From an uncultured virus (IMG/VR IMGVR_UViG_3300025120_000023) (lineage: Duplodnaviria; Heunggongvirae; Uroviricota; Caudoviricetes): DNA of 64,000 bases. Below, piece by piece: positions 1,413 to 27,718 of this stretch. The stretch lies in IMG/VR virus record IMGVR_UViG_3300025120_000023, one strand, 5' to 3'. The notes beneath the pieces are model-generated. The model ran no database searches. It was given only the letters and a program-made list of their open reading frames with translations, and was not told the DNA's origin. Numbering within the stretch: the first letter of the stretch is position 1; every line of letters begins with the position of its first letter. Both the position numbers and the translations under genes were made by a program.

Positions 1413-3659
1413 TTACACGTGACCTTCTGCGAAATCTGTTGCTATATTTGGTTCTGCAATTAATCCAGTCTCAATTGAAACAGTATTCTCCATACAATCC
1501 TTTGTAATCTCACAAGCTTTCTCTGCATGCTCTGCTGATGCGTTTACTACAAATTCATCATGTATCTGTAGCATTATATAAGCATCGATGTTATGCTTTT
1601 GAAACTCTTCATGAATTCTAATGGCAGATCTGTTCATGATTGAAGCTGCAAGAGATTGGATCTGGAAGTTCTTAGCATTGTTAAGGCCGTTCTTATATTC
1701 CATTCTCAACTGCTGAAGCTCTTTCTCGTTACCAGCCTTGCGTGCATTCTCTTTCATGCCTTTGAATACCCACGGCTTGATCAAATTGTCTTCAAATTTC
1801 TCATAAATGTACTTGACTTTATCAAGATGTCTAATTCTACCAGTCTTGTTTACAATCTTACCTACCGTGTTTGCACGAAGGTGGGTATCATTCATCCACT
1901 TTGCTAACTCTGGAAAACCATCTAAGTATCCGTTGATCATTTTCTGAGCTTCTTTGATGTGGATGTTAAGTTGTTTACCAATCTGCCATGCACCAGCTCC
2001 ATAAGGAATAGCTAGTGCAATCGACTTAGCTCTCTGTCTAAGGTCAGGTCTGAGTTTCTTGAGATAGTTATCATCTGATTTGATAGCAGACATACCTTCA
2101 AGCTTCCATGCTTGTATTGCTACTCTACTATATAGATCTTCACCATTCTTGAATACGTTGATTAGTCCTGGATCATTGCTCACACTTGCAAACACTCTTG
2201 GCTCCAAACTACTCTGGTCACATATGACTAAACGTCTATCGTCTTCTGACTTAACAAACTTACGGACAATGTTATTGTACTTCAATACGAGTGGACTAGC
2301 CTCACCAGGTTCTAGGATTCTAGGTAACTGTTGGCTGTCGGAGCTGAATCGTCCACTCGTAGTTCCATGTTGTTTCACATAGAAGTAGTACCTTCCATCC
2401 TCAGATCGTTCTGTGAATCGATCAATGTAGGAAGATTTGATCTTGTTAAGTTTGTTGTAATCTTTCATCTTAGCAGCCCACTCATAATCCTTAGATATAT
2501 GGTCAACCAAGCCTTCGTTGAATTGATTATTACCTTTACGTGTTTTGCTTAACGGCTTTATTCTGAGATAGTCAAAGCATAATTCACCAAGTTGTTTCTT
2601 ACTACTGATGTTAATGAGTCCACCTTCTTTCTCTTTTAAGAGATCCAGACTAACTCTCATGCTGTCCATAGGATCCAGATGTTCAGTATCACCATCTGCA
2701 AGAAACTGATCAACACCATCTTCATTCTTCATCATGCCTCTATTCTTGTAGTCTAAAAGCTTCTTAGCAAAGTTACCTCTTTTCTTTGGTGGAAAGGATT
2801 CGTGAGCTCTTTCTAAAGCCCATCTCTTAGCTTCTGGTAGTTTCATCAAAGCATCTACAACTTCTTTCTCAAGTCTCGTAATGTCTTTTGTAATCTGACT
2901 ATCCATATCATTGATCAAATCCATATCAAGCATAGATCCTTTCTCTTCCATCTGAATAGTTACTGTACGATATAGAGGCATCACCTCATCTGTAAAGAAG
3001 AAGTCCCATAGGTTTTCCTCTTTTAGTAGTGGCAGATAGTGAGTCATTACACGTAATGTAAGATCGGTATCAGCTGCAGCATATTCTCCAATGATCTGCA
3101 TGTCAGCTTTGTATAATTCGTAGTTAGTCTTGGTAGTCTGACCTCCATTGGCTTTTATAGATTCTTTCAATTTGATCTGCTCTTCGTTAGCTTCCTTCTC
3201 AGCATCTATACCTAACTCGTTCTGAAGCTCTATTGCAATATCCTTCAAACCAAATGGACCATCTTCTTTAAGAGTGTGACGTAGTAGCATAGTATCACAA
3301 TAAAGTGAATCACGCAAATCTATACCATAGCAGTTTAGAGTATAGCGAACATCAAAAGATGCATTATGCATTACTAACTTCTTACCGACAAGCAGCTTGA
3401 TTAGCTTAACAGCAATATCCTCACACCTCTTACCTTCGATAGTAAGATTATCAATAGTTTGTGTGTCGTTGTTCCAAATCTTAGTTGGAAAATAGTAACC
3501 TTCATTGAGGTTAGCAGAAACAGAGAAACCTATGATATCTCCTTGTCGAGGATTAACACTGGTTGTCTCAGTATCATATGCAATTATGTTTCCTTGTGTG
3601 ATGTAGTTGGCTAGCTCTACTACACCAGCTGCATCTGTGATTATTTTGTAACTCTTCAT
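1413..3659 (-). CDS. polA: DNA polymerase family A with 3'-5' exonuclease
   Basis: ExoI DTET, ExoII HNASFD, ExoIII YAAAD; TTSGRFSS; motif A DQSSLEPR; motif B RQRAKSIALAIPYG; NFQIQ; motif C QIHDE. Confidence 0.95.
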   Translation of the reverse strand: MKSYKIITDAAGVVELANYITQGNIIAYDTETTSVNPRQGDIIGFSVSANLNEGYYFPTKIWNNDTQTIDNLTIEGKRCEDIAVKLIKLLVGKKLVMHNASFDVRYTLNCYGIDLRDSLYCDTMLLRHTLKEDGPFGLKDIAIELQNELGIDAEKEANEEQIKLKESIKANGGQTTKTNYELYKADMQIIGEYAAADTDLTLRVMTHYLPLLKEENLWDFFFTDEVMPLYRTVTIQMEEKGSMLDMDLINDMDSQITKDITRLEKEVVDALMKLPEAKRWALERAHESFPPKKRGNFAKKLLDYKNRGMMKNEDGVDQFLADGDTEHLDPMDSMRVSLDLLKEKEGGLINISSKKQLGELCFDYLRIKPLSKTRKGNNQFNEGLVDHISKDYEWAAKMKDYNKLNKIKSSYIDRFTERSEDGRYYFYVKQHGTTSGRFSSDSQQLPRILEPGEASPLVLKYNNIVRKFVKSEDDRRLVICDQSSLEPRVFASVSNDPGLINVFKNGEDLYSRVAIQAWKLEGMSAIKSDDNYLKKLRPDLRQRAKSIALAIPYGAGAWQIGKQLNIHIKEAQKMINGYLDGFPELAKWMNDTHLRANTVGKIVNKTGRIRHLDKVKYIYEKFEDNLIKPWVFKGMKENARKAGNEKELQQLRMEYKNGLNNAKNFQIQSLAASIMNRSAIRIHEEFQKHNIDAYIMLQIHDEFVVNASAEHAEKACEITKDCMENTVSIETGLIAEPNIATDFAEGHV

Positions 3660-8221: not shown

Positions 8222-9034
8222 TTAAAGATCTGCTCGCAGCAGTTCTGGGATTCTGCATTGTAATCCTAAGAAAGCTATATTCTTTTCGATTAAGCTAAAG
8301 TCAATATCAGCAGGATTACTCAGATCAAACTCCTCCAAAAAGTTGTGAGGTGTTGGAGTTCTTGTCTCGTGATCCATACTAAAGTCTTGACCATGTACAG
8401 CTGCTAATACTGGATACACTGAATCTGTACTTCTCATCATCGCATGATCATAGTAAGCAAACTCAGTTGGATCTCCTTGGCCTAGACAATGAATAGGCTT
8501 CTTGAGTAAATCTTTCTTTTTGAGATAATCGTAACACGCATGACGTGCCTCTTTGATTCCTTGATCATCTTCAAAATCATCAAGCCATGCATTAGGTACT
8601 GCTATTTTTGATAAGCCAATTACCTTAACCCAATTCTTATCTATACCCCACTGATAAGCTTCAATCCAATCCTCTTTAGTTTGTCCTTGAGGACAGAAGA
8701 AGATATCGATATTGTCAGATAATCCTTCTGCATCCATTCTTGCTTTGAAGTTTGTTGCATTAGCAATTGTAGCTTGTTTGTCAAACAACACATCAGGTGC
8801 AATCACTTCATTTGGCATAAGCACTTTGCAGATACCAATCAACACATCTTCAGTAACTAATGCTCTTTCAGCTGCGCTATTGTCAAGTGTTATAAATTTA
8901 CCTTGCTCTTTTTGTTCGAGAATAAACTTTCTGTATTCTGGAAACTGTACCCATAAGTGTGCAAGAGCAAATATTCTATCTCCGAGCTTCATTGGCTCGA
9001 GGTTGCTTACAGGTGATATTACGTAATAATCCAT
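8222..9034 (-). CDS. TGT/DpdA-like TIM-barrel (7-deazaguanine transglycosylase family)
   Basis: Ordered TGT-like motifs LDNSA, APDV, PQG, IGLS, IHCLG, STDS; no Zn-binding CxCxxC; adjacent to folE. Confidence 0.75.
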   Translation of the reverse strand: MDYYVISPVSNLEPMKLGDRIFALAHLWVQFPEYRKFILEQKEQGKFITLDNSAAERALVTEDVLIGICKVLMPNEVIAPDVLFDKQATIANATNFKARMDAEGLSDNIDIFFCPQGQTKEDWIEAYQWGIDKNWVKVIGLSKIAVPNAWLDDFEDDQGIKEARHACYDYLKKKDLLKKPIHCLGQGDPTEFAYYDHAMMRSTDSVYPVLAAVHGQDFSMDHETRTPTPHNFLEEFDLSNPADIDFSLIEKNIAFLGLQCRIPELLRADL

Positions 9035-9035
9035 A

Positions 9036-9677
9036 TTATGTTCTACTTTGATCTATTAATTGAAAAAATTCTTGTCTTGTTCCTATCTCATTTGTCCAGA
9101 AGTATCCAGACATTTGTGATGTCTTCATTACTGAGTCTTGTTTGATACCTCTACACTTCACACAGTTGTGTTGTGATTCAACTACCACAGCTACACCTCT
9201 GTTTCCTACACATAACTTATCAACGTGATCGTGAATTTGCTTTGTTAAGCTTTCTTGTATGTTTGGTCTACGAGAATAAAAATCTACAATACGATTAAGC
9301 TTACTCAAACCAACTACTAGATCCTCCTTCTCTTTACCTGGTATGTAAGCTACATGAGCTACTCCTGAGAAAGTTAAGTTATGGTGTGCACACATACTCA
9401 TTACTGGAATACGTGTTTGGCATATTAATCCGGTGTAGCCTTCGTCGTTAGGGAATGCAGTTACTTCAGGTGCTGGATTGATGGATCCTGCAATAAGATC
9501 ATTAACCCATGCTTTCGCTACACGGTGAGGTGTACGATCGCTATGAGGATCAGCTTTCCAATCAAAACCTAACGCTTCTAAAAATCCACCATAATACTCA
9601 GCAGCCTTTTTTATCATCTGCTCCTTCTCTTCGTTTGTACGAGGAAGATTCCCGTTCGCTTTTTTAATTAATTTCAT
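9036..9677 (-). CDS. folE: GTP cyclohydrolase I
   Basis: TPHRVAK, SMCAHH, GLSKLNR, IQESLT, HNCVKCRG. Confidence 0.95.
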   Translation of the reverse strand: MKLIKKANGNLPRTNEEKEQMIKKAAEYYGGFLEALGFDWKADPHSDRTPHRVAKAWVNDLIAGSINPAPEVTAFPNDEGYTGLICQTRIPVMSMCAHHNLTFSGVAHVAYIPGKEKEDLVVGLSKLNRIVDFYSRRPNIQESLTKQIHDHVDKLCVGNRGVAVVVESQHNCVKCRGIKQDSVMKTSQMSGYFWTNEIGTRQEFFQLIDQSRT

Positions 9678-9680
9678 ATA

Positions 9681-10157
9681 TTAATTGTTGTTTATAATTT
9701 CTAATCGTTCTTCAAATATACTAAAAATCTTTTGACATTCCAACTCTATTGGTTTATTATCTGCAACCTCAAAAGATTCAGTATCTTTGATATCGTCACG
9801 ACGTTCATAACGCACTTTTCGTATGTGTTCGGATGTGTTTAACCATATTAGATGAGAGTCGGGATACCACTCAAGAATTTTATCTACGATTGTAGATTGT
9901 CTTATCCCATCTACAATAATAGGTCTTCTCTTAATGATACCTTTCTCCACACAAGTTGTTATAGCATCTAACACTCCAACAACCTCTTCCGCAATACGCT
10001 CATCTAAATGTAGTGAGTTTTGTAACTTTGTTCGATCCTCACTTTTTATCAAATCCTTAACAATGTTAGATACCGATATTCTGTAAGATGTTGATGCTTG
10101 AAACGAACTCTTCCCACTACATATACGTCCAAATAATAATATAACTTCTGCTTTCAT
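9681..10157 (-). CDS. P-loop nucleoside monophosphate kinase-like protein (start revised to 10157)
   Basis: ILLFGRICSGKS Walker A, IIVDGIR, lid R..RYERR; ATGA overlap with upstream stop. Confidence 0.75.
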   Translation of the reverse strand: MKAEVILLFGRICSGKSSFQASTSYRISVSNIVKDLIKSEDRTKLQNSLHLDERIAEEVVGVLDAITTCVEKGIIKRRPIIVDGIRQSTIVDKILEWYPDSHLIWLNTSEHIRKVRYERRDDIKDTESFEVADNKPIELECQKIFSIFEERLEIINNN

Positions 10158-10495
10158 ATCTCTACAATTCCAAAAAATTCTCCATCCTCTGACACAGTGC
10201 ATCGACAAAGACCAAAATAGTTTAACAAATCCTCCGCTATCATCTCACAGCTCATTCCTCCAAAGTTGCAACATCCATATGCTCCATCGTACCAAGTCTT
10301 AGCAATATATTTTTTAAGCTTATGTTTAAAATCTATAAACTCAATGTCTCTATCACCATGTGACACTTCTGCTCTACAACTTATCTGGAATGTGTGTCTG
10401 TGTAAATGTTTTAAATACTCAACATTTGGTAGTGGACAATCTTTCCACTGATGCAATCCTTCTACATCAACTCTTACCTCTATATATTTTTTCAT
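10154..10495 (-). CDS. QueD paralogue (T-fold), DpdL-like putative CDG decarboxylase
   Basis: LKHLHRHTF (LxxxHRHxF instead of QueD CxxxHGH), RDIEF, SCEMIA, VSEDGE. Confidence 0.7.
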   Translation of the reverse strand: MKKYIEVRVDVEGLHQWKDCPLPNVEYLKHLHRHTFQISCRAEVSHGDRDIEFIDFKHKLKKYIAKTWYDGAYGCCNFGGMSCEMIAEDLLNYFGLCRCTVSEDGEFFGIVEI

Positions 10496-10535
10496 AATTC
10501 TAATATACGGCTTTTATTGCAAAGATACAACTTTA

Positions 10536-10739
10536 TTAGTCTTCAATTAATTCTGGTTCTTCTTCGCTCTCTAAACACTTATCTCTTGCTAGATCCCAAT
10601 CGAAGTCAAACTCCCCCTCGTAATATGCTTCTAAAAAGCTTTCTTTATCTTTCTTGTAGTGAGCTAACTGTTCTTCAGTCAACTCCACCTCTTCCCATCT
10701 GTAGTCCGTATATGTGACTAGCTTTCGTAACTTTGCCAT
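10536..10739 (-). CDS. Small acidic hypothetical protein (start revised)
   Basis: ATG immediately after upstream stop; MAKLRKLV... Confidence 0.55.
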   Translation of the reverse strand: MAKLRKLVTYTDYRWEEVELTEEQLAHYKKDKESFLEAYYEGEFDFDWDLARDKCLESEEEPELIED

Positions 10740-10740
10740 A

Positions 10741-11223
10741 CTACTTTTTGTCTTTGTCTTTTTGCCATTGACCATCGTACAACTCTGCTTCTGCATTCTC
10801 CATCATAATGATCTGAGCTACTCTAGCACCTTTTTCTAAAACAATAGTTTCAGTAGCTATAAGCATACCACCCATCTCATCTACCTCAAATCCTGGATCG
10901 TAAACTCCTGATGTGATAACACCTCCTGATCTTAGAACAGAGGACCTATGCCTAATAAAAGCTGTGTGTTTGTCATCCAACTTACATCCTTGTTCAAAGG
11001 TGAGTGAATAGGTACCTGGTTCTAGTTGATATAGAAACTTACCATCATCATTAATGAATGGTGTAACTTCATCGTAATCAAATACAGTGGTTTTATCTTT
11101 CATAACCATACCACCATTTACTTTATTTATTGACTTTAAGGTTAAGTCATAACCAACTTGCGCTTTCTTTCCTTTGTCTTTTGTATCAAGCAAGGAAGCG
11201 ACTCCATCTGCATTTAGTAACAT
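10741..11223 (-). CDS. Trimeric dUTPase/dCTP-deaminase-fold protein
   Basis: GYDLT, RSSVLR, YDPGF, GARVAQ, YDGQWQ. Confidence 0.85.
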   Translation of the reverse strand: MLLNADGVASLLDTKDKGKKAQVGYDLTLKSINKVNGGMVMKDKTTVFDYDEVTPFINDDGKFLYQLEPGTYSLTFEQGCKLDDKHTAFIRHRSSVLRSGGVITSGVYDPGFEVDEMGGMLIATETIVLEKGARVAQIIMMENAEAELYDGQWQKDKDKK

Positions 11224-11232
11224 ATTTGTATC

Positions 11233-11391
11233 TTATTTGTTTTGTGTATTAATACTTCTTTTTAAAACTGCAGCAATTAATAACATTGCTCCTCCTATTA
11301 CCAACGCATGCATAAGAGTTGGTGATCCTTCATACTGACAACACTGCTCTCCGCATGCTCCCATAGTGTGTTTAATTAAATCTGTGTTCAT
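11233..11391 (-). CDS. Small Cys/His membrane peptide (52 aa)
   Basis: Hand translation MNTDLIKHTMGACGEQCCQYEGSPTLMHALVIGGAMLLIAAVLKRSINTQNK; follows a class 2 promoter. Confidence 0.55.
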   Translation of the reverse strand: MNTDLIKHTMGACGEQCCQYEGSPTLMHALVIGGAMLLIAAVLKRSINTQNK

Positions 11392-11431
11392 ATTATTTGG
11401 TTTTATTTGTATTAATATACGGTTTATTATT

Positions 11432-11566
11432 CTATTTTCCTAATTCTTTTATCTTTTCTTTAAGCTCATCAATCATTGCTTGAACCTCATCAGGCTCCAT
11501 TGTAATAGCACAGCATGTGCCAACGTGTTCTGATATCTCTTCTAGTAACTCTAAAGCTTCTTCCAT
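11432..11566 (-). CDS. Small helical protein (44 aa)
   Basis: Hand translation MEEALELLEEISEHVGTCCAITMEPDEVQAMIDELKEKIKELGK; start overlaps queE stop. Confidence 0.55.
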   Translation of the reverse strand: MEEALELLEEISEHVGTCCAITMEPDEVQAMIDELKEKIKELGK

Positions 11567-12423
11567 CACACTCCTCGTTCTGTATCGAATGCTATGATGT
11601 GATCTCTACCAGTCATATTGTATCCCTCTCTTTCGCACATTCTGAATACTTTGGGATACATTTCGATTAGTGTTACTCTCGTATCTCCGGCTGGCATCAT
11701 ATATGTCTTGTCTTTTGGAATATTCATCTCAACTCTGAAAGCTTCGATCTCCTCTAAGTTTTTATCTGTACCGTCCCATACTGGTTTGAAGTGATAGTCT
11801 GTGTGATAGTCTAAAGTCTTACGCATTGCGTCGTAATTCATTCTCAACTTGTTGTGTTGTTTTATCATACGCTCATCCGTTTCTTTACCAGATGGCGTCT
11901 TAGCGCCCAAAACGGGAACACTATTACTAAACTTAGGGCTAAGACTAATAAGCCCAATAGGATGATCAGTTGGTAAAAAGTGACTACCTTCAGTTTCAAT
12001 AGTGATAAGAATACCTCTTTCATTTGCAAAGTGTGTTAATTCGTTTACTAGAGCTGGATGCATTGTTGGTGATCCTCCAGTTAACATCATTTCTTTTACG
12101 TGAGGATTGTCGTCATAAATTTTAATAATGTCGTTGAAGTTGAATGTACCTTTCTCTGGATGAATACTTGTGTACCAAGAATCACACCATCCACCCTCAC
12201 CAAAGTAACATCTGTGAGTACATCCAGTTGTTCTTACTGCAATAGTAGGTCTTCCGAATCTACTACCTTCAGACTGAACACATCTGTAAACTTCCACTAT
12301 AGGTAGTACTTTATCGTAATTCTCAATACGTTTTAGTTGCTTTTCTTTTGTTGCTTGATAAGGTTTGTTCCTATCAAAATCGTAGTAATGCTTTGAGTGT
12401 TTTCTTGTGTCTTGCATGCTCAT
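11566..12423 (-). CDS. queE: 7-carboxy-7-deazaguanine synthase (radical SAM)
   Basis: VQSEG..GRP..AVRTTGC..RC...WCDS, LTGG, IETEG, SLSPK. Confidence 0.92.
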   Translation of the reverse strand: MSMQDTRKHSKHYYDFDRNKPYQATKEKQLKRIENYDKVLPIVEVYRCVQSEGSRFGRPTIAVRTTGCTHRCYFGEGGWCDSWYTSIHPEKGTFNFNDIIKIYDDNPHVKEMMLTGGSPTMHPALVNELTHFANERGILITIETEGSHFLPTDHPIGLISLSPKFSNSVPVLGAKTPSGKETDERMIKQHNKLRMNYDAMRKTLDYHTDYHFKPVWDGTDKNLEEIEAFRVEMNIPKDKTYMMPAGDTRVTLIEMYPKVFRMCEREGYNMTGRDHIIAFDTERGV

Positions 12424-12426
12424 AAA

Positions 12427-12672
12427 TTAAAATGGTAAGTCATCAACCTTTGGTTCTGGTCTCTTTGGTGTATCTGGCTTTGGTGCAGGAGGGTTAAAAT
12501 AGCTGTCTAAGAATTGTTTTGGATACATTAGTATCTTTCCTTCGTATGTAGGATTCTGTATTTCTTTGCTTTCAATGCGTACACCTTGCTTAAACGCTTC
12601 TTCTGCAACTTTCTTACCTAGCTCTGCTCCTGCAGCTCTGTTTAAGTAATCGTATAATGATAACATCTCCAT
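12427..12672 (-). CDS. Hypothetical protein
   Basis: SLYDYL..AAG..LG; ends DDLPF. Confidence 0.7.
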   Translation of the reverse strand: MEMLSLYDYLNRAAGAELGKKVAEEAFKQGVRIESKEIQNPTYEGKILMYPKQFLDSYFNPPAPKPDTPKRPEPKVDDLPF

Positions 12673-12738
12673 AACTAATCTTTTATGTATTCGTATACAA
12701 AATCTATATCACCAAACGTGGTTGTGTATGTCCAATAA

Positions 12739-13206
12739 CTATCCTTCATAGATTGCTGTATTTTTCTTGTTCTCAAAAAATTCCACTCTTGCGATACTCA
12801 CTCTGCCTTCTGTCTCTTCTTGTACAAACGCGTTTAGCTTTTTGTATATAAACTCAGCAAATCTCTCAGCGCCTACTGGACCATCCATTTCTCTTAATTG
12901 GATGATACCCTCATCATCTGCTTCTTGAAAATGAGTTAAGTATGGATCATCTTTTGCAATTACAACTGTATGATCAAACATATAATCCATCCACTCTTTA
13001 GGAGACATTCCATCAATCTTAGTATTGGATCTTTTCATTCCTCCAAAGTCCCATACCCAATTACGATGATCAAGATCACCCTCGAAGGTTACTTTAAACT
13101 CTATTGCATATCCATGTAAGAATCTGCAGTGTGTTGTTGTTGCTTGGTATTGACGAAATACTGTACTGAATCCGTCAAAGATTTTTGTTGATTGAAATTT
13201 AGGCAT
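12739..13206 (-). CDS. queD: 6-carboxy-5,6,7,8-tetrahydropterin synthase
   Basis: CRFLHGY, WVWDFG, FDHT, GAERFA. Confidence 0.9.
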   Translation of the reverse strand: MPKFQSTKIFDGFSTVFRQYQATTTHCRFLHGYAIEFKVTFEGDLDHRNWVWDFGGMKRSNTKIDGMSPKEWMDYMFDHTVVIAKDDPYLTHFQEADDEGIIQLREMDGPVGAERFAEFIYKKLNAFVQEETEGRVSIARVEFFENKKNTAIYEG

Positions 13207-13876: not shown

Positions 13877-15241
13877 TTATTCTTCTTTAGATACCTCAGA
13901 CTCCTTTTGTGGTGCCGCTTTGTATTCTATACGTGGTAACAAGTTACTCGAAAGATTAAATACTTCAAAGCCACACTCCTGACTCCACAGATAATCAACT
14001 ATATCGTTTATGCTTCCTTTTGCGTATATATAATCTCCATTGCTTGGTGCATCTTTTTTTCCAGCGTCACACGCTATAAAGCCTACAAATTTACTCTTTA
14101 AGCCATTGTAGTACTTGATTAAGTTTCCAAGACCCCAATACCTATTAACTTCTAACGGATCTTTCCAGTTACATGTTATGTTTGATGGTGGTATCAAATT
14201 TGTAGCTTTCATCATGTCAACAACCAAAGCTTCAACCTCAGCTTCATTTCCATCTTCAGCAGCTTTAGCCAATGCAAAGGGAGCTGTTAATGATTTATCA
14301 TTGTACATTATTCTAGTACCCTCCTCCAACGCATCTTCTTGCACTTTTCCACCGCTAACAGTAATGCCAATTTCGTTCAATCTTTTAATAAAATCCTGAT
14401 TCGTAATGAGATTGACTCCTCCTGATGCTCCCAGCCTTGCACTCCATCCTTTAACTTCGAGTTCTCCAACTTTGTCAAGCTCTAAATCACCAGCTCCTTT
14501 TGGCTTTCTTATGTTTTGATACAATAAAGCCATCATAATCTCAGCCATTCCAACCCCTTTTACGCCCTCATCTTGTCCAGTATATTTAGACAATATATCG
14601 ACCAACTCGTCAGTCATTCCAGTTTCCGCAAGGTCTTTTTTGAAGTTACCATAGTGGGACTCTGGATTAAAATATTCTTGTTCACCCTTTCCTTTCTTAT
14701 CTAAATAAGAAATAAATTTACTATACACGGAAGATGGTAGAGCTTTTAACATTTCTTGGATTTCTAAGGATATCTTTTTTGGCATGTTGTAAACTACATT
14801 ACCTTTCTTATCTATTTTCTCTTTAAATCCAGTTAGTTTAAATGTCTTTTTGAGTGGATCATATAGAGTAAATGCTTGAAGGTCTTGATGTAATCTATAC
14901 AACTTTCCTTTAATATCATCTTCTATTTCTGGATCAAGAGAACCATCGTCCAACTGAACACTAAGTGCTTTAACTGCTTTTAATCTGTCCTTGAAAACTT
15001 TTTCAACATCAGCAGCGGTTATTGAGTCTTTGTCTACTTCATTAATCACACTATGCTTAATCACATCCGATACTGGAGTCTTGCTTTTTACAAAGCTAGG
15101 CATCTCATTGATACCATTCTCTTTAAGTATCTCATGTAACACTTTTAATTCACTTGGTTCAGTAAACTTGCCATCCTCCATTGTAGGATAACCTTTCTTG
15201 AGTCTATATGACCACTCTAGTAGTATGTCATTTATTTCCAT
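13877..15241 (-). CDS. Putative internal head protein with PD-(D/E)XK-like C-terminal domain
   Basis: N-terminal INE-type motifs; GMAE...GDL...ELEVKG. Confidence 0.5.
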   Translation of the reverse strand: MEINDILLEWSYRLKKGYPTMEDGKFTEPSELKVLHEILKENGINEMPSFVKSKTPVSDVIKHSVINEVDKDSITAADVEKVFKDRLKAVKALSVQLDDGSLDPEIEDDIKGKLYRLHQDLQAFTLYDPLKKTFKLTGFKEKIDKKGNVVYNMPKKISLEIQEMLKALPSSVYSKFISYLDKKGKGEQEYFNPESHYGNFKKDLAETGMTDELVDILSKYTGQDEGVKGVGMAEIMMALLYQNIRKPKGAGDLELDKVGELEVKGWSARLGASGGVNLITNQDFIKRLNEIGITVSGGKVQEDALEEGTRIMYNDKSLTAPFALAKAAEDGNEAEVEALVVDMMKATNLIPPSNITCNWKDPLEVNRYWGLGNLIKYYNGLKSKFVGFIACDAGKKDAPSNGDYIYAKGSINDIVDYLWSQECGFEVFNLSSNLLPRIEYKAAPQKESEVSKEE

Positions 15242-20412: not shown

Positions 20413-21783
20413 TTAGTCGATTAATTTGTTTAATTCTTCAAATTTATTTGCCAAAGCATTTCTGATTACTGTATCGTCATTGTTCATAACTTTTTTAGTA
20501 GCCTGTCCTAGTATTGTGTTCTCTTCATATATCTCAATACCACACACTGCCATGTTCATCTTACTTGGGAAAGTCAACCCATCGGGTCCAAACCGATTCT
20601 TTATTATATGCCATCTTCCAGTTCCACTAATCTTATCAGCAGTCTTTCTTGATAATGATACAATAAAGTCAGCTACCATTACTTTAGTGTATGATTCAGC
20701 AATCTTATCTGCTTCTATCACTTCCATCTCAGCTGCACTTCTATTTGCTTGAGATGCTGTCCATAATGGTATCTTATGTAATCCAGCTAGCCCTCTCAAC
20801 TCTTCATAGATACCTCCAAGTACCTGATCGTGTCTAGCGTTCTTATTCGATCCTGCGTCTCTTAGTAGATCGGCATAATCCAGGAACACTATATCTGGAA
20901 CAGCTCCTTGTATTGCACACTTATCTAGGTGTGCTGCTATAGTATTTACAGTTGCAGTCTTAGTTGGATAGTATTTGATTATCAACTTACCCTTCAACTT
21001 TTCCATAGCAATCTCAACTTCTTCTTTATGATACTTCAAATCAGAAGTTGGGATGCCAGTGTAATAGCTGTCAAACCTTCCACCCACATAAGTGTCAGAA
21101 AGCTCTAATGTATAATACACAACATTCATTCCTTGCTTTGCACAATGCGCAGCTGCATTTACTAAAGCCATTGATTTACCAATACCTGCAGGTGCTACAA
21201 ATACTCCCATCTCACCTGGACCTAATCCACCATCGGTTATGTCATTAATGACTTCCCATGGAGTTGGTACAGTCTTTCTGCTATTCGCACTGAACCTTTC
21301 TTCTATGTGATCAATATACTCATGACCAATGTCTTTATCTGATCCAGCTTTCATAGCCTCATCTACTGTGCTTTTAATTGCATCATACTTGCCTTGTTGA
21401 AGAAGTTGAACAGACTCTAGTATTGCAGCTTTTAGTTTCTGATTCTTACAAAAGTCGATTGTCTTGTCTTTTATGTAATCTGAATCTAAAGCATCTATAT
21501 GTTTCATGACATCTTTTAGATTATCAATTACAGTAGTCTTTAGAACATCTTGTTCGATACTATCAATCTCAACTTTCATCACCTCTAATGTCGGTGTTGT
21601 TTTGTATTCGTTAAAATACTTTGCAATAGTCTTTGCAATCCATTGTGATGATTCTGAAGAGAAGTATGTTGGATCAAGTATGTCGTGTATCTGTTGTAGG
21701 TATATTCGATCCTTAATTAGGACCGCTAACAGCTTACTTTGAAAACCAGCTCCGTATAATTGAAAAGTATCTTGTGTTCCCAT
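20413..21783 (-). CDS. Replicative helicase (DnaB/T4 gp41-like)
   Basis: APAGIGKS, YTLE, FLDYAD, WTASQANR, KNRFG. Confidence 0.92.
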   Translation of the reverse strand: MGTQDTFQLYGAGFQSKLLAVLIKDRIYLQQIHDILDPTYFSSESSQWIAKTIAKYFNEYKTTPTLEVMKVEIDSIEQDVLKTTVIDNLKDVMKHIDALDSDYIKDKTIDFCKNQKLKAAILESVQLLQQGKYDAIKSTVDEAMKAGSDKDIGHEYIDHIEERFSANSRKTVPTPWEVINDITDGGLGPGEMGVFVAPAGIGKSMALVNAAAHCAKQGMNVVYYTLELSDTYVGGRFDSYYTGIPTSDLKYHKEEVEIAMEKLKGKLIIKYYPTKTATVNTIAAHLDKCAIQGAVPDIVFLDYADLLRDAGSNKNARHDQVLGGIYEELRGLAGLHKIPLWTASQANRSAAEMEVIEADKIAESYTKVMVADFIVSLSRKTADKISGTGRWHIIKNRFGPDGLTFPSKMNMAVCGIEIYEENTILGQATKKVMNNDDTVIRNALANKFEELNKLID

Positions 21784-21813
21784 GTGGATGAATATACGGT
21801 TTATTAATGTAAC

Positions 21814-22857
21814 TTACAACAAGTTTGTGTATTGATTTATTTTGGTGGTAACATCTCGTAACCACATTTCTGGATTACGTATAGCGTTTGTCATTCCATC
21901 TTCGATTAGTAGTCTGTGAAATGTCATCTTTGCTAAGCTACGTCCTTCAGCATCCATAGTATCATGTATGCGAAGTTGTGTAGTTGCGTTTAGTAGTGTT
22001 TCACCTAGCTGCATTATCTCATGATACAACTCTATATCTTTAACATTATTCTCCACAATGTTGTAGGCTTTAATTTTAGAGTCTTGCACCAGATCTTTAT
22101 TGTAGCTGAAGAATTCTTTGAGATTGATTACTTCTTGTTCGGCCATCCGTGGCCATCTCTTCAATATTGTCTTTAGCTTTAGGCCGGGAGCTCCTGGAAT
22201 ATTATCCGAGGAGTCCCCTTCCAAAGCTCGATACACTGCGAAGTTTTGAGGAATGACTCCATACTCACTATACACATCATCTTCATAATACAATTTCTTT
22301 TTCGTTGGGCTCCATACGTGTACGTTATTGGATACCAGTTGTAAGAAATCCTTATCGGATGACATAATAAATGAGTGGGAGTCTTTCGGTGTAAGTATGT
22401 TATTTGCGATGTAAGCAATTACATCATCAGCTTCTGCTCCATCTAAAGTTATTACGGTGATCGGTAAAGTCTCAAGATAGTCAATCAATCTAATTAATTG
22501 TTCTAGTTGATTATCTTCCTTGTCTACGGATTGTGCTCTGTTGAGCCTAATGCTGACTTTACGTGTTGCTTTATATTCTGGATACAGCTTTCTTCTAGCA
22601 GCTGATCCATTTTTACCATCAAACACGACAATGACCCGAGTAGGGCTCATCGTCTTGATAGCGTGACCCATACTAGATAAGAATCCTGAGATCCCACCGC
22701 AATGCTCACCATTAGCGTTTAGGGTGGGTGTTGCTGAGTAAGCTCGTATAAATGTGTTTAATCCGTCTATGATTAATACTCGGTCGTCTCTATGTTTAGA
22801 TTCTTCTGTCTCACGCAACTTTAATTGATTGAGCAATTTAGCATACTTATTTTTCAT
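21814..22857 (-). CDS. 5'-3' exonuclease / RNase H (FEN-like)
   Basis: IIDGLN, VFDG, YPEYK..R, EADD, SSDKDFLQL, GDSSDNIPG. Confidence 0.92.
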   Translation of the reverse strand: MKNKYAKLLNQLKLRETEESKHRDDRVLIIDGLNTFIRAYSATPTLNANGEHCGGISGFLSSMGHAIKTMSPTRVIVVFDGKNGSAARRKLYPEYKATRKVSIRLNRAQSVDKEDNQLEQLIRLIDYLETLPITVITLDGAEADDVIAYIANNILTPKDSHSFIMSSDKDFLQLVSNNVHVWSPTKKKLYYEDDVYSEYGVIPQNFAVYRALEGDSSDNIPGAPGLKLKTILKRWPRMAEQEVINLKEFFSYNKDLVQDSKIKAYNIVENNVKDIELYHEIMQLGETLLNATTQLRIHDTMDAEGRSLAKMTFHRLLIEDGMTNAIRNPEMWLRDVTTKINQYTNLL

Positions 22858-24014
22858 TCCTCGTCTTGGTTTAGTGGTGTATCAATTCCTTCCATATTAG
22901 AGGTGTCAATTGTCAACTCATCCGGATCAATTTCCGTCTGTGTTTTGTAATGCGATATACTATTCTGTTCAATAGCATTTTTGCAATACGCTCTAACCTC
23001 TGGTCTCTTGAGTATGTCTCTCCACTCTTTACTTTGGAATTTAACAACCTCTCCAGTATCCTCCATTATGAGGGTGTACCAAGATCCTCCCACTGTTATA
23101 ACTTTATACTTCTTGAGTGTGTCTAACCAACTAGCGTCATCATCTATTCCAGAATCAAAGTATATACTAAACTTCGCTTTCTTAAAAGGAGGTCCATATC
23201 TATTCTTTACGACTGTGGCTTGTGTGTTTACGCCAATTATATCTCCATCACTATCCTTGATCTTACCAACAGCTTGAAGTCTCACTCTACAGCTTGCATG
23301 GAATGGCAAAGCCTTTCCTCCACTTGTAGTGTATTTGTCTCCAAACATAGCGCCTAACTTTTCTCTCAACTGATTTGTAAACGCTAAGATTACTTTCTCT
23401 TTTCCAATAAGATTGGTTATCTTTCTTAACGCTTTCGACATAATAATAGCTTTGGATGTAGCCCATCCATCTTTATCATAGTCAGCATCTTGCTCTATCT
23501 TCGTGGTAGCTGCTGCTACTGAATCTACAACAATTGTAACAAGTCTGTCTTTACTAGTCTTACGAATATCAAGTATAAGATTCTCTATTGCTTCAAAGAT
23601 GTCTTCAATTGTATCCATTGGTAGGTAAAGCATGTTCTTGACATCAACACCAATTGCAGTAAGAAACTCTTCACTTAGTGCATTCTCAGTATCAATGTAA
23701 ACTGCTATACCACCTTTCTTCTGAGTATTAGCTAATAGGTGAGCTGCGATCAGAGATTTACCGGACGCTTCAAGCCCGGTAAATTCTGCGATTCTTCCTA
23801 CTGGTAATCCTCCGTTAGGTCGATTTGATATGGCAAGGTCTAGATCTGTTGATCCGGTTGACACCCAATCCGAAAGATCGGTTTGTGTTTTCTCTTCTCC
23901 TAGGAAGTGAACAGCTTTGAAGTCTTTAAACTTCTTATTTAGACTTGATGCCAACTCTTGAGCTAGCTCGTCCCTTCCCGCTATTTCATCGGGTGTAACT
24001 TTTGCTTTTGCCAT
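22854..24014 (-). CDS. recA: RecA/UvsX recombinase
   Basis: GLPVGRI.E..GLEASGKS, YIDTE, VVDSVA, NQLREK, GGKAL.F. Confidence 0.95.
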   Translation of the reverse strand: MAKAKVTPDEIAGRDELAQELASSLNKKFKDFKAVHFLGEEKTQTDLSDWVSTGSTDLDLAISNRPNGGLPVGRIAEFTGLEASGKSLIAAHLLANTQKKGGIAVYIDTENALSEEFLTAIGVDVKNMLYLPMDTIEDIFEAIENLILDIRKTSKDRLVTIVVDSVAAATTKIEQDADYDKDGWATSKAIIMSKALRKITNLIGKEKVILAFTNQLREKLGAMFGDKYTTSGGKALPFHASCRVRLQAVGKIKDSDGDIIGVNTQATVVKNRYGPPFKKAKFSIYFDSGIDDDASWLDTLKKYKVITVGGSWYTLIMEDTGEVVKFQSKEWRDILKRPEVRAYCKNAIEQNSISHYKTQTEIDPDELTIDTSNMEGIDTPLNQDEE

Positions 24015-24019
24015 AACTG

Positions 24020-24784
24020 TTATGAATTAAATAAATCTCCGAATGCTGTTGAGATGTCTTCTGTTGTGTTTGCCGTCTTAGCTCCAGTAATTGGTGCCTT
24101 CGTAGTAGTAGCTTCGCCACCTTCACCAGGCTTCAACCAATCCTCTAATGCAACTTTCATATCGTCATACGATAGCTCAGTAAACATCTTTGTTAATTCT
24201 GGTTGCTTGTTAACAATCATTTCTGCAACATTCTTATCTTCTGTTGCTGGTGTTGTGTTAGGCTTAACTCTAACATTGTAAGATGGATAGCCACCCTCCT
24301 TGTCTGGAGCGATGTGTTCGATTGTTACGTCACGACCGTTTGTTAAGTCAGTGATATCTCCATAATCTGGATCTGTGATTACTCCTAATAACTCAGAGTA
24401 TATCTTCTTACCAAAAGCATAGAACTTAACTCCTTCAGATTCTTGTCCTCTAACAATTACGGGAGTGTAACATCTGAACTTTGGTTCCATCTTTCTTCCC
24501 ATCTTCCAATCTTCTTTGTCTCCAGTGCTTTTAAGCTTCTCTGCAAATTCAAGTACAGGATCAGGTCTTCCAAATGAGCTCGGAGAGATCATTGTTTTCT
24601 TTCCTATATCGTAATGAAAATAAAGTTCTTGAAAAGGGTTTGATTTGTCGAACGAATAAGGTACTATTCTTACTTGTGATTTTCCGACTGGTGGTTTCCA
24701 GAATACATCTGAGTTTCTGCTTCCACCGCTTGTTGTTTGAAGCTCTTGCAGCTTCGCTTTAATTGCATCTAAATCTAGTGCCAT
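24020..24784 (-). CDS. Single-stranded DNA-binding protein (T4 gp32-like)
   Basis: FWKP...VRIVP, DYGDITD...GRD, acidic/Phe C-terminus; adjacent to recombinase. Confidence 0.8.
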   Translation of the reverse strand: MALDLDAIKAKLQELQTTSGGSRNSDVFWKPPVGKSQVRIVPYSFDKSNPFQELYFHYDIGKKTMISPSSFGRPDPVLEFAEKLKSTGDKEDWKMGRKMEPKFRCYTPVIVRGQESEGVKFYAFGKKIYSELLGVITDPDYGDITDLTNGRDVTIEHIAPDKEGGYPSYNVRVKPNTTPATEDKNVAEMIVNKQPELTKMFTELSYDDMKVALEDWLKPGEGGEATTTKAPITGAKTANTTEDISTAFGDLFNS

Positions 24785-24960
24785 TTTTTGTTTTGTTTTT
24801 ATTGGTTTATATTTATATTTAACTGTCCTATTAAGTATCGGGTATCTTGTTGAGCTATTTCTTTTTATTTCTTTGTACTATATTTATGCTCTTATTGTAC
24901 CGCTGACTTAATACATTAGACTAACTATACTGCTTTTCTACCGTATTTGCAACTTTTATT

Positions 24961-25335
24961 TCATTGTAAATGTTTTATTTCTACACTCCTAAAAGATCCA
25001 TCTCGATTAGTAAGTAGTAGGCGATTAGTAAATTGGGTCCAATCAACACGATATGTTTTATCTAACACACCATTGTTTTGCTCGCGTATTAATGCATTAA
25101 GGGCATTAATGCTATACAATGTTTCTGTATCTTTTTTGCGATTGATTGTAATTGTGTCTGACATTCTGCTTTGCGTATTGAATGTATTGTATATGCAAAC
25201 AACTGAAGAGTCTTCAGTATATTGATAGCATCTCATGTTTGAAACATTTTCAACTTGATAAGTTTTGTGAATGCGTGTAATGCAAGAGGGTAGCTCCGAC
25301 ACGGTCGTAAAGGTGCAAAGTAACTGAGATCTCAT
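24961..25335 (-). CDS. Hypothetical protein
   Basis: LLCTF...RKK.TETLYSINALN; co-transcribed from late motif at 25604. Confidence 0.7.
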   Translation of the reverse strand: MRSQLLCTFTTVSELPSCITRIHKTYQVENVSNMRCYQYTEDSSVVCIYNTFNTQSRMSDTITINRKKDTETLYSINALNALIREQNNGVLDKTYRVDWTQFTNRLLLTNRDGSFRSVEIKHLQ

Positions 25336-25338
25336 TTA

Positions 25339-25599
25339 TTATCCTGAAGTTTCGTCGGGCTTCTCAGATGCTGCTTTACCTTGTGCTGTTTTTAAGACTG
25401 CTATTTGGTCCTGCAGAGCTTTGATTTGCTCCTCTTTTGTTTTAATTCTTTGGTCCATCTCCTTCTTCTCTGCGTCAATCTCTCCTTGAGTCTTTTCTGC
25501 TAAAATTTTTTTTGAATACTTAATATTGTTTTGCTGGAAATAGCTCTCCAATCTACGGCGAACTTTCTCCTTCAATACCTTTCTCTTATGATCCTTCAT
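25339..25599 (-). CDS. Small coiled-coil protein, putative head-associated (start revised)
   Basis: ATG 4 nt after TATTTAT; LKE/LAE motifs. Confidence 0.6.
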   Translation of the reverse strand: MKDHKRKVLKEKVRRRLESYFQQNNIKYSKKILAEKTQGEIDAEKKEMDQRIKTKEEQIKALQDQIAVLKTAQGKAASEKPDETSG

Positions 25600-25613
25600 A
25601 CTTATAAATAGGA

Positions 25614-26939
25614 CTAAGTTGTGCAAAAATCTAAATTTGCGTAATTATTTCCTTGCTTTACTTTGATAGGAAATTTATACAAATCTATTGATGCTGGTAT
25701 GATTTTATTCATTAATAAATTCTTATGACGGTTGTGTACATCAAATAATACACTATCATATGTGTAGAGTATTGGTTTACCTTTGATTCCAGATTGTACA
25801 AAATGCTCAGCCATTGTACTTAACATCTCTACATTATATTCAGTCTCCATCATCTGAATGTAGTAGTTGAAAAAGGTGTAAGGAGTAACATCTTTGTAGT
25901 TTTCCCAATACATCACTCTGTGTGATATCGGACTCTCTACACGATAGTTTTCTCTCTTTTCCCACAGATCCTTTACAAAGGCATCTGTTTTTGCAAAGAA
26001 TGGTATATGTAAATAATCCTTACGTATTCCTCCATACAGTTGTCTGAATGTATCTTCTTTAGCTTTAGATATTTGATCTTGTGTAGGATTGTCTGTGTTG
26101 TGATAGTGCTTAGCTAAATGCTCGTAAACATTGTCTTCACCAAAATCGTAATCAATTAGTGTTGCAATAATTCTAGGATGGTATGAGTTAAAATCTAATT
26201 CTACTAAACACCCATCATCACCATACCTACTAACAAAGCATTCACGTGTCTCATCTTTAGGCAATGCTGCATAGTTTACTCCTCCAAAGCGATTACTAGG
26301 TCTTCCGGTAGTTGTGTAGTAGTTGTATTGCGTGTAGCATTTGTCACCAACTCGGCTAAAGGTTTTTCCAAATCGTTCTTTATACCTTTCCTTATCTACA
26401 CGTAATCCACTCGACTCAATCCAATTAAACACTCCTCGAAGTTTGTTTGCATAAAAATCATAACCGCTAGGAACATTAATATCTATGAATTGATTACATA
26501 TACGATCTACTCGCTCTTGTAGTTTGAGTAATGATATAAGTGAGTTTGTTTTCTTACATCCTGACATGCTACGATTATATCGTGTAACCATCACACCTGA
26601 TTCTTTTTCTAGCTTTTGTCTAGTTCTAAGATAGTGTATCATATCAAGGTCCATGAATGTTGGTTCTGATCCTAATTGAAACTCATAATTTTTAAAAAGA
26701 TGAATATCTGTACAGAATAGTAGGTTAGAAAACTTACTCAACAAGGATAGTGACATATTATAAACAGCCTCTGGATGATCTACTCCTACAATATAGGATG
26801 GACCTAAGTGGCCTTCTTTAATTGCTAATGCAATAATCTTATTCTGTGTAGAATGTACTCGATCGTCTTCTGGGATTGGCACTATGAATAGTGCTTTGTC
26901 TTGCAATTCTAGTAACTGCTGTTCGCTATCTATAACCAT
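25614..26939 (-). CDS. Divergent second family-A polymerase-fold protein
   Basis: TTTGRPSN, motif A DFNSYHPR, motif B AKEDTFRQLYG, NYYIQ, motif C YTYDS; no recognisable exonuclease motifs. Confidence 0.85.
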   Translation of the reverse strand: MVIDSEQQLLELQDKALFIVPIPEDDRVHSTQNKIIALAIKEGHLGPSYIVGVDHPEAVYNMSLSLLSKFSNLLFCTDIHLFKNYEFQLGSEPTFMDLDMIHYLRTRQKLEKESGVMVTRYNRSMSGCKKTNSLISLLKLQERVDRICNQFIDINVPSGYDFYANKLRGVFNWIESSGLRVDKERYKERFGKTFSRVGDKCYTQYNYYTTTGRPSNRFGGVNYAALPKDETRECFVSRYGDDGCLVELDFNSYHPRIIATLIDYDFGEDNVYEHLAKHYHNTDNPTQDQISKAKEDTFRQLYGGIRKDYLHIPFFAKTDAFVKDLWEKRENYRVESPISHRVMYWENYKDVTPYTFFNYYIQMMETEYNVEMLSTMAEHFVQSGIKGKPILYTYDSVLFDVHNRHKNLLMNKIIPASIDLYKFPIKVKQGNNYANLDFCTT

Positions 26940-26959
26940 AATGTAACTATACGCTTTTT

Positions 26960-27718
26960 TTATCTAGGAGGCAATGGTTCGGGTGGAATAATTTTACCAG
27001 ATTGCAAATCAAAAGTTCTTTTTAGGGTTGGTTTATTCCCACTTGTTAGCTTGTTGTTAGTTAATAATGCTTCTGGATTACCGAATTCTGTTTGAGCGGT
27101 AGGCACTGCAAATTGTATATAATTGCTAATAAGAGATGGCAAGTCGGCAACTGTTTGAGATGCTATGCTTACGCGTTCTTTGTTAGTTTTTTCTATAAAC
27201 TCAATGGTTCCAGTCAACTGCCACAACACATCTACATAATCGTAAATATTAGAATCAATTCCAAAATCACTACCAAACTTATCCCTTTGTGCTGAATCAA
27301 TCTCTACTGCAAAATTGCCTGACCCTCGTCGTTGTACAAAAAACCTTGTGTCAAACCCTAACTCATACATTCCATCAGAAGGTCTGACAAGGTATGTATA
27401 TGGTATAGGGTCTACGTGATCTTTAAGAGGTGTTACGAATTTGTGTAATCTATCATAAACAAAATTATCCATGTCGTCATAATATGGTAACAGTTGAATA
27501 CCGTTGTCTATACGTCCTTGTGGTTTAGTAGGACCAGTATATGTTTTTCCATCGTTACGTCTATGATACTCTCCTATATATTCTTCACCCATTCTTGTAG
27601 TAAACTCCCCACCTTTAGTGTACTTATAAGATTGCTCACTCCTTATAATCTGTCCAGGTGTAGGTCTATTAAATCCTTTTGATTTTTTTCTATTACGTTT
27701 ACTTCCTCTCTGTCCCAT
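26960..27718 (-). CDS. Hypothetical late (tail/baseplate region) protein
   Basis: Late motif 4 nt upstream; end of tail module. Confidence 0.65.
   Translation of the reverse strand: MGQRGSKRNRKKSKGFNRPTPGQIIRSEQSYKYTKGGEFTTRMGEEYIGEYHRRNDGKTYTGPTKPQGRIDNGIQLLPYYDDMDNFVYDRLHKFVTPLKDHVDPIPYTYLVRPSDGMYELGFDTRFFVQRRGSGNFAVEIDSAQRDKFGSDFGIDSNIYDYVDVLWQLTGTIEFIEKTNKERVSIASQTVADLPSLISNYIQFAVPTAQTEFGNPEALLTNNKLTSGNKPTLKRTFDLQSGKIIPPEPLPPR

Follow-up and report, generated by a model that had tools for sequence, protein, structure and literature searches.

divPolA1 of an Uncultured Phage, a Constrained and Probably Catalytic PolA-Fold Protein with a Missing Thumb and a Rebuilt Nucleotide Pocket

Results

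A Second PolA-Fold Gene ahead of the Replication Block

The DNA analysed here (the window) is a stretch of 64,000 nucleotides from an uncultured marine caudoviricete, IMG/VR record IMGVR_UViG_3300025120_000023 (G000), a phage record of 165,609 bp that is 98% complete and has T4-like head and tail genes. On its minus strand, the window encodes a canonical family A DNA polymerase and, separately, a 441-residue protein with PolA-type motifs, P0001 (Table 1). The order of the genes around P0001, with the polymerase ahead of SSB, RecA, exonuclease, and DnaB, matches that of phage immuto.

Table 1. Features of the divPolA1 locus and of related genes in the window (window coordinates; Klenow numbering for equivalents unless stated).
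Position	Strand	Feature	Basis or remark
1413..3659	-	Canonical family A DNA polymerase, 748 aa	Exonuclease motifs and equivalents of E710, R754, and H881
20413..24784	-	gp32-like SSB, RecA/UvsX, 5'-3' exonuclease, and DnaB block	
24961..25335	-	Conserved 124-aa protein, N-terminal half ferredoxin/ACT-like	Candidate partner
25339..25599	-	Small variable gene	ORF caller start 25626; ATG 25599 after TATTTAT
25604..25610	-	TATTTAT late-type motif directly past the divPolA1 stop	Taken to drive the downstream genes
25614..26939	-	divPolA1 gene P0001, 441 aa	ORF, fold, dN/dS
25740..25766	-	Motif C YTYDSVLFD	D395 = D882, Y394 = H881, S396 = E883
25833..25868	-	Helix Q NYYIQMMETEYN	N358 = N845, Q362 = Q849; E365 (25845-25847) at Klenow A852 / T7 RNAP D787
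26031..26072	-	Motif B	I290 at R754 position; K294, F298, Y302 kept (homologue alignment)
26172..26195	-	Motif A DFNSYHPR	D249 = D705; H254 (26178-26180) at E710 steric gate (profile alignments)
26301..26303	-	R213 of TGR motif	Klenow R668, T7 RNAP R425; 137/137
26340..26462	-	Thumb stub, residues 160-200	E175-R213 span
26472..26939	-	Exonuclease-fold N-terminal domain, ~residues 1-156, without exo I DxE	H29, H55, E/D57, D97 conserved
26946..26974	-	sigma70-like site TTGCCT-17-TATAGT	Ends 6 nt before ATG (near-leaderless)

P0001 Belongs to the Published Family divPolA1

By sequence comparison, P0001 is assigned to the published family divPolA1, and the gene itself is not new. It aligns over its full length (residues 2-432) with the prototype, QQO91680 of Flavobacterium phage vB_FspM_immuto (Yutin et al. 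2024, Virol J 21:200, PMC11348598), at 28% identity (E 2e-49). The accessible text of that paper describes divPolA1 in 14 phages of 155-190 kb as a second PolA beside a regular family A, B, or C polymerase, with an intact palm, a truncated thumb, a dead exonuclease, and a gene placed ahead of the replication genes; it concludes that DNA polymerase activity has most likely been retained. The present phage, with its genome of 165,609 bp and its regular PolA at 1413-3659, conforms to that description. The histidine at the steric gate, the loss of R754, E365, the co-occurrence with DnaG, and sugar selection are undiscussed in the accessible results and discussion text of the paper. Literature matches to the name divPolA1 and to the accessions CAB4155247 and QDP51333 were confined to Yutin et al. 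and its preprint, and a literature search with most subscription papers outside its reach found no biochemical study of the family. What is new here is the sorting of the pocket changes against control polymerases, the parallel between E365 and D787, the DnaG counts, and the promoter layout.

The family is large: matching proteins number 4536 when clustered at 90% and 916 when clustered at 50%. The conservation sample was drawn from the best 120 of the 4536 and the best 150 of the 916 matches, so that the counts given below represent the nearer part of the family. After removal of 14 of 151 sequences for length, the homologue alignment comprised 137 full-length sequences at 27-46% identity. 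A pooled set of 399 unique sequences was partly gathered with motif-bearing patterns and so is not independent of the 137. Cellular genomes yielded three matches, every one on a MAG contig of 13-20 kb, which are probably binned phage DNA.

The Fold Is That of Pol I, with Most of the Thumb Missing

The AlphaFold model of P0001 (pLDDT 93.5, pTM 0.90) superimposes as a whole chain on Pol I-type enzymes with Z scores of 22-23 over about 400-419 residues (rmsd 3.7-5.5). The match to the E. coli Pol I Klenow fragment reaches Z 22.5 (419 residues aligned, rmsd 3.7), compared with Z 10.2 over 263 residues (rmsd 4.2) for T7 RNA polymerase, and Foldseek agrees with this ranking. A Pfam search left P0001 unrecognised, and a profile built from the 137 homologues retrieves Klenow at E 4e-12 (hhalign probability 97%).

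The span from E175 to R213 counts 38 residues in P0001 (family median 38, range 23-44, n=395), as against 127 in E. coli Pol I (E541-R668) and 199 in the canonical PolA that the phage encodes. Most of the thumb, about 90 residues, is therefore missing. Judged from these alignments, the loss of the thumb is the largest change in P0001, and it had escaped the original prediction.

The N-terminal domain resembles an exonuclease fold (ExnV1; Z 8.9, 169 residues aligned, rmsd 3.3). That no proofreading motifs would be visible was borne out: Pfam reports no exonuclease domain in P0001, the same search finding one in the canonical PolA, and a conserved DxE on the first strand of the fold, the exo I motif that was looked for, is absent from the 137 homologues. 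Within the dead domain, residues 25-57 (window 26769-26867, minus strand) nevertheless include H29 in 96%, H55 in 95%, and E/D57 in 99% of sequences, with D or N at position 25; from conservation, the H29/H55/E/D57 cluster is possibly a rebuilt metal or ligand site. As a separate observation, the 935-residue protein P0171, found on a single contig, appears by eye to have divPolA1 fused behind an N-terminal region with polymerase-like motifs; it was the one such case in a search for fusions among 4840 candidate longer proteins.

Catalytic Residues Are Kept under Strong Constraint

Profile alignments to Klenow place H254 on E710, I290 on R754, Y394 on H881, and S396 on E883. The equivalents of R668, D705, K758, F762, Y766, N845, Q849, and D882 are kept, as are the template-side residues R213, N222, N358, and Q362, and alanines align with the primer-contact positions Q677 and N678. 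All of the PolA-fold motifs originally read from the 441-residue frame are present (TGR, DFNSYHPR, K294/F298/Y302-G, N358..Q362, and Y394-D395-S396), and the stated contrast with the canonical PolA at 1413-3659, whose motifs A and C read DQSSLEPR and HDE, is confirmed.

R213, D249, K294, E365, Y394, and D395 are invariant in the 137 homologues, while H254, Y302, and Q362 are each kept in 136 and F298 in 130. The alignment of homologues that had been proposed as a check thus upholds both catalytic aspartates (137/137); for the histidine and the YDS motif it upholds His (136/137), Tyr, and Asp (137/137 each) but not Ser, which is found in 113/137. Arginine occupies the R754 position in five homologues and is lost in 132, the family having Tyr or Ile there, in line with the loss that had been noted in motif B. 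In the pooled set, gathered in part by motif patterns, H254 is found in 396/397 and E365 in 398/398 sequences. Values of dN/dS lie between 0.116 and 0.125 (five unsaturated pairs; six more distant pairs were saturated) and are alike in both domains, which, with D249 and D395 kept throughout, agrees with the earlier view of a retained enzyme. Taken together, sequence conservation and selection indicate that divPolA1 is probably a strongly constrained, catalytic PolA-fold enzyme.

Control Polymerases Separate Real Pocket Changes from Common Variation

The pocket was compared with 11 canonical family A DNA polymerases and with eight full-length phage RNA polymerases, namely T7 and seven others that are 26-34% identical to it; one more sequence was truncated and therefore dropped. 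E710, R754, and H881 are each present in 11/11 of the DNA polymerases and all replaced in divPolA1, so that their loss must be considered real. In terms of the features that define canonical family A enzymes, divPolA1 lacks the steric-gate Glu, the RxxxK of motif B, and the His-Asp of motif C. The RNA polymerases carry Gly (7/8) or Ser (1/8) at the gate, R627 and H811 (8/8), and Met at the position of F762 (8/8), and divPolA1 shares none of these traits.

A different result was obtained three residues past Q849. Here the DNA polymerases have Ala, Gly, or Ser (11/11) and divPolA1 has Glu, E365, in 137/137 sequences; the RNA polymerases have Asp (D787) three residues past H784 in 8/8, a match to E365 that rests on a register in which we take T7 RNAP H784 to be Klenow Q849. 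On this alignment, the invariant acid is one RNA-polymerase-like feature of divPolA1. According to the accessible text of PMC10520511, the Bst equivalents of Q849, R668, and E710 form one electrostatic cluster, and we infer that enzymes without E710 shift the pocket acid to helix Q. Such a shift would explain E365 as a structural compensation, so that the residue alone is no proof of RNA synthesis.

Two further candidates were rejected. Serine follows the motif C Asp in 6/8 RNA polymerase controls, but HDS is also carried by 4/11 control DNA polymerases, and the motif thus loses the value as an RNA polymerase hint that the original prediction had given it. Similarly, the change of H734 to Tyr is not special, Tyr being found in 5/11 control DNA polymerases.

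In family B, family Y, and reverse transcriptase enzymes, an aromatic residue serves as the gate. In AEP-family enzymes, a histidine contacts the 2'-OH and favours NTPs (PolDom), and PrimPol gains NTP use through Y100H (PMC6362072, accessible text). By analogy, the histidine gate of divPolA1 can be read both ways: its bulk sets it apart from the Gly of RNA polymerases, and yet histidine favours NTPs in the AEP family, which has a different fold. The accessible text passages of a 19-cluster PolA classification (PMC10201439) mention no group with a His gate.

A Primase and, in Most Records, a Regular Polymerase Are Present

The original prediction had found no primase in the window. This is correct for the window, which has no DnaG, but not for the genome, which encodes one at G000:121608-122531 (zinc ribbon, EGAFD, LDPD; phrog_47 at E 3e-38). 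DnaG is likewise present in 7/7 related records (5/5 IMG/VR contigs longer than 116 kb and 2/2 cultured phage records; 8/8 with G000), and the argument from a missing primase to divPolA1 as the primase fails. A regular polymerase accompanies divPolA1 in 6/8 records, as PolA in G000, immuto, G002, and G004 and as PolB in G003 and G006. None was found in G001 (71% complete) and G005 (67% complete), and every complete genome examined (G000, G003, immuto 2-6A) has one. The proposed check for a constant canonical partner thus gave an ordinary replicase in six of eight records; with PolB as the partner in some relatives, the term "two-PolA replisome" is not supported. Among the genes scanned, neither a sliding clamp nor a clamp loader was noticed.

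The position of divPolA1 ahead of SSB, RecA, exonuclease, and DnaB is fixed. Where the flanking sequence reaches at least 4 kb (84 loci), the gene for the 124-residue protein lies downstream in 83 and SSB in 82. The model of this protein (pLDDT 94.9) gives a best Z of 7.2 (rmsd 2.3, 62 residues aligned) over residues 1-64, to ferredoxin/ACT-like structures, with no Foldseek match at E 0.001 and Atlas hits below 0.9. Its conserved stretches are QLLCTF, HRKKxTNTLY, NNGVLD, and a W, and the label WYL_2 of the Yutin supplement map may apply to it. Specific co-evolution with divPolA1 was rejected, the Spearman coefficient of 0.71 comparing with 0.70 for SSB in a test that is weakened by shared kin distances. 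In many relatives (L037, L042, L045, L050, and others), one or two variable genes of 200-750 aa intervene between divPolA1 and the 124-residue protein; they lie behind TATTTAT and share an N-terminal start of the type I..EW.YRLP.GY, which is also that of window 13877-15241.

Several other regions were noted. Window 8222-13206 (minus strand) contains folE, queD, and queE, with a phrog_20335 gene where immuto has dpdA and no queC seen within this interval; the cluster suggests, from gene content, 7-deazaguanine DNA modification. A link to divPolA1 was rejected: phrog_20335 occurs in 2/5 related contigs and is not in the complete one, so that the family does not track this gene. At G000:118420-122958 (L001:5421-9959, minus strand), far from the replication block, a fused Mre11/Rad50-like protein (1063 aa) and a T7 endonuclease I-type resolvase accompany DnaG. 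About ten genes at G000:8609-14438 (minus strand) share a MIKLKDIL-like N-terminal peptide, possibly a virion-targeting signal, and some 22 kb at G000:21142-43624 (minus strand) have N-termini like those of sugar-nucleotide and glycosyltransferase enzymes, two of the genes having been scanned.

A Sigma70-Like Site Precedes and a Late-Type Motif Follows the Gene

Single sigma70-like sites occur at chance level in the region (15 observed, 12.3 expected). The strict pattern, however, is found in 83/106 unique upstream regions of homologues versus 2.5% in shuffles, which bears out the promoter predicted ahead of divPolA1. In G000, a related -10 motif stands ahead of canonical PolA, DnaB, and DnaG among nine genes. 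The description of divPolA1 as heading the replication block is correct for gene order only: TATTTAT follows its stop, and the SSB gene has a sigma70-like site of its own (24924-24952).

TATTTAT lies at most 70 nt past the divPolA1 stop in 79/117 unique loci, against a background of 66/2249 windows, and it also precedes 29/185 minus-strand ORFs, many of them structural. As the promoter of divPolA1 itself it was rejected, with none in the 70 nt upstream and 2/106 among the homologue upstream regions. Metatranscriptome contigs from four runs (three samples, two studies) span parts of the divPolA1 gene, which demonstrates neither transcription nor its level. Two of these contigs (X1, X5), both belonging to one study, stop at 25586, some 20 nt downstream of TATTTAT, a weak hint of a transcript start near there.

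A 244-residue protein at G000:151816-152550 (L002:5817-6551, minus strand) is scored as sigma70 region 2-like by a language model (0.98), and PF04542 is found on 21% of the members of its cluster; a PDB profile search, Pfam, and PHROGs gave no sigma match. A homologue is present in 4/5 long contigs. The T4 late promoter TATAAATA is read by the host RNA polymerase with a phage sigma, and we take the phage motif TATTTATA to resemble it. The 244-residue protein is a simpler candidate for the reader of TATTTAT, as a putative late sigma for TATTTATA.

Discussion

A Tentative Role as an Accessory Polymerase

Based on these data, a model, which we favour at slightly less than even chances, would have divPolA1 act as an accessory polymerase, distributive and without proofreading, that serves short gaps and recombination intermediates and is probably relaxed in its choice of sugar. 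Fold, conserved residues, selection, and gene context are observed, whereas activity, low processivity, substrate, and sugar tolerance are deduced from them. The protein would be expressed early, from the promoter class that it shares with replicase, helicase, and primase. Two metals held by D249 and D395 would, together with K294, lengthen a 3' end by one nucleotide or a few on a DNA template; the invariant metal ligands, the general-acid Lys, and the template-side residues point to such template-directed addition. Without a thumb, the duplex would not be gripped and would be released after short tracts, and the joint absence of thumb and proofreading points to synthesis that is short and distributive. 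The enzyme would most likely fill in short gaps and prolong or restart 3' ends arising from SSB, RecA, and 5'-3' exonuclease in recombination-dependent replication and repair, substrates that are suggested by its fixed neighbours SSB, RecA, 5'-3' exonuclease, and helicase. Bulk synthesis would be left to PolA, PolB, or PolC and Okazaki primers to DnaG, as the presence of a replicase and DnaG makes either task unneeded for divPolA1. Within the pocket, the floor acid would have been relocated, with E710 of motif A giving way to His and E365 of helix Q taking over, and selection of the sugar is probably relaxed. It is important to note what this model explains less well: E710, R754, and H881, kept in all 11 controls, are all replaced; the full invariance of H254, E365, and Y394 implies a specific chemistry beyond the needs of a relaxed repair enzyme; and the replicase with the 5'-3' exonuclease could fill gaps without divPolA1.

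Alternatively, divPolA1 may be a repriming or origin-priming enzyme that makes short RNA or mixed chains de novo beside DnaG, with single-stranded DNA bound by the 124-residue neighbour or SSB, a possibility that we regard as the main rival, doubtful as it is. It would account for the loss of E710 to a histidine in 136/137 homologues, for an invariant E365 where T7 RNAP has D787 (Asp in 8/8 RNA polymerases; Ala, Gly, or Ser in 11/11 DNA polymerases), for alanine at the Q677 and N678 positions, and for the missing thumb. There are precedents, as far as the accessible texts go, in the sugar-selecting His that favours NTPs in PolDom and PrimPol Y100H (PMC6362072; another fold family) and in CCPol-MP, a PolA core able to prime with a small partner (PMC7581432); the 124-residue gene is present in 83/84 loci, and PrimPol likewise works beside the eukaryotic primase. 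Yet DnaG is found in 8/8 records, divPolA1 matches no RNA polymerase trait among the Gly/Ser gate, R627/H811, and Met at F762, the equation of E365 with D787 depends on the register (H784 = Q849) assumed above, and the 124-residue protein has best matches of ferredoxin/ACT type rather than of OB-fold type and follows the polymerase no more closely than SSB (0.71 versus 0.70). In its boldest form, equally tentative and with chances well below even, this would be an independent switch of family A to RNA or mixed synthesis: an enzyme of 440 residues, thumbless, with an acid at the RNA polymerase position (E365 = D787) and a His gate that takes the 2'-OH, which in thousands of abundant aquatic phages would lay down short primers de novo at origins and stalled forks beside DnaG, aided by its 124-residue neighbour.

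It seems unlikely that divPolA1 serves as core replicase or leading-strand polymerase, with the 124-residue protein, SSB, or helicase replacing the thumb and the "regular" polymerase as the accessory. The constancy of divPolA1 at the replication block would fit, the regular polymerase belonging now to family A, now to B or C, and lying in variable surroundings (PMC11348598, accessible text); a replicase of 155-190 kb genomes with neither proofreading nor thumb would not, and the canonical PolA is intact, has its exonuclease motifs and the same early promoter class, and a regular polymerase is found in every complete genome examined (G000, G003, immuto 2-6A). Similarly improbable is a specialised nucleotidyltransferase with a non-standard substrate or reaction, which would use a modified dNTP or a diphosphate, remove blocked ends by pyrophosphorolysis, or add tails without a template. 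In its favour, 132/137 homologues lack R754, which binds the triphosphate, the primer-contact H881 is always Tyr, and the source genome has folE, queD, and queE; against this, the template-side residues R213, N222, N358, and Q362 are kept, and phrog_20335, the neighbour of folE, is present in 2/5 related contigs and not in the complete one.

Two readings are very unlikely. As a minimal single-subunit RNA polymerase for the TATTTAT (late) genes, divPolA1 would have in its favour the E365/D787 parallel with the motif C Ser, the early expression expected of a late-gene polymerase, and TATTTAT behind its gene in 79/117 loci. However, it has 441 residues as compared with 799-883 in the eight full-length RNA polymerases, its N-terminus has an exonuclease fold and no promoter-binding domain, and its structural match to RNA polymerases is lower (T7 RNAP Z 10.2); the genome moreover offers a sigma70-region-2-like protein as a lead, and TATTTATA is like the T4 late promoter TATAAATA. 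The original suggestion that divPolA1 transcribes these genes thus has half the size of T7 RNAP, the lack of a promoter-binding domain, and a sigma-like gene against it. No more credible is a role without catalysis, as a DNA-binding scaffold or as a decoy for polymerase-sensing defences of the host: the loss of three substrate-binding residues, of the thumb, and of the exonuclease site would fit, but the metal-binding Asp pair and the general-acid Lys are kept in 137/137, which would not be expected of a scaffold.

More generally, divPolA1 is a large family in which residues kept in 11/11 family A DNA polymerase controls are replaced by others that hardly vary. Should the enzyme accept ribonucleotides or prime de novo, it would represent a natural link between Pol I and the T7-type RNA polymerases and provide a scaffold of very small size for synthesis with sugar-modified nucleotides; if it is a dNTP gap filler, histidine can act as a family A steric gate. 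Since the cultured phage immuto carries divPolA1, either outcome is directly testable.

Comparison with Known Polymerases and Primases

With E. coli Pol I Klenow and phage PolA enzymes, divPolA1 shares the fold and the equivalents of the catalytic residues; it differs in the absence of about 90 thumb residues and of the exo I DxE and, relative to Klenow, in the substitutions of E710 by His, R754 by Ile or Tyr, A852 by Glu, and H881 by Tyr. A thumbless second PolA of about 430 residues is also known as divPolA2 (AUR84708; PMC11348598, accessible text). Its motif A, DFKAFE, has Glu at the gate and its motif C reads FDE by eye, and kinship with divPolA1 was rejected, there being no detectable profile match.

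A reduced PolA core, a small adjacent gene, and a link to a helicase are found in the CCPol-MP/PolA-SSB primases (PMC7581432; bioRxiv 10.1101/2022.12.02.518924) and in TV-Pol (PMC2579912), as described in the accessible texts. CCPol, however, has retained both E710 and F762, and its priming uses dNTPs only (PMC7581432, accessible text), whereas divPolA1 keeps the Phe and has His in place of the Glu; the partner MP is, in the same text, a predicted OB fold, whereas the neighbour of divPolA1 has ferredoxin/ACT-like best matches. TV-Pols (PMC2579912) keep RxxxK and a thumb, and divPolA1 neither. Membership of divPolA1 in the CCPol-MP group was rejected on the retained E710 and dNTP priming of CCPol, and membership in the TV-Pol group on the retained RxxxK. 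In addition, CCPol-MP and TV-Pol elements, as far as their accessible descriptions go, use the polymerase instead of a primase, in contrast to divPolA1 phages, which keep DnaG.

From T7-type RNA polymerases, divPolA1 is set apart by a gate of His rather than Gly, by the loss of the R627 and H811 equivalents, by Phe in place of the RNA polymerase Met, by half the length, and by the absence of a promoter-binding domain. What the two have in common is a gate without Glu, an acid three residues past Q849/H784, and a Ser after the motif C Asp, as in 6/8 of the RNA polymerases.
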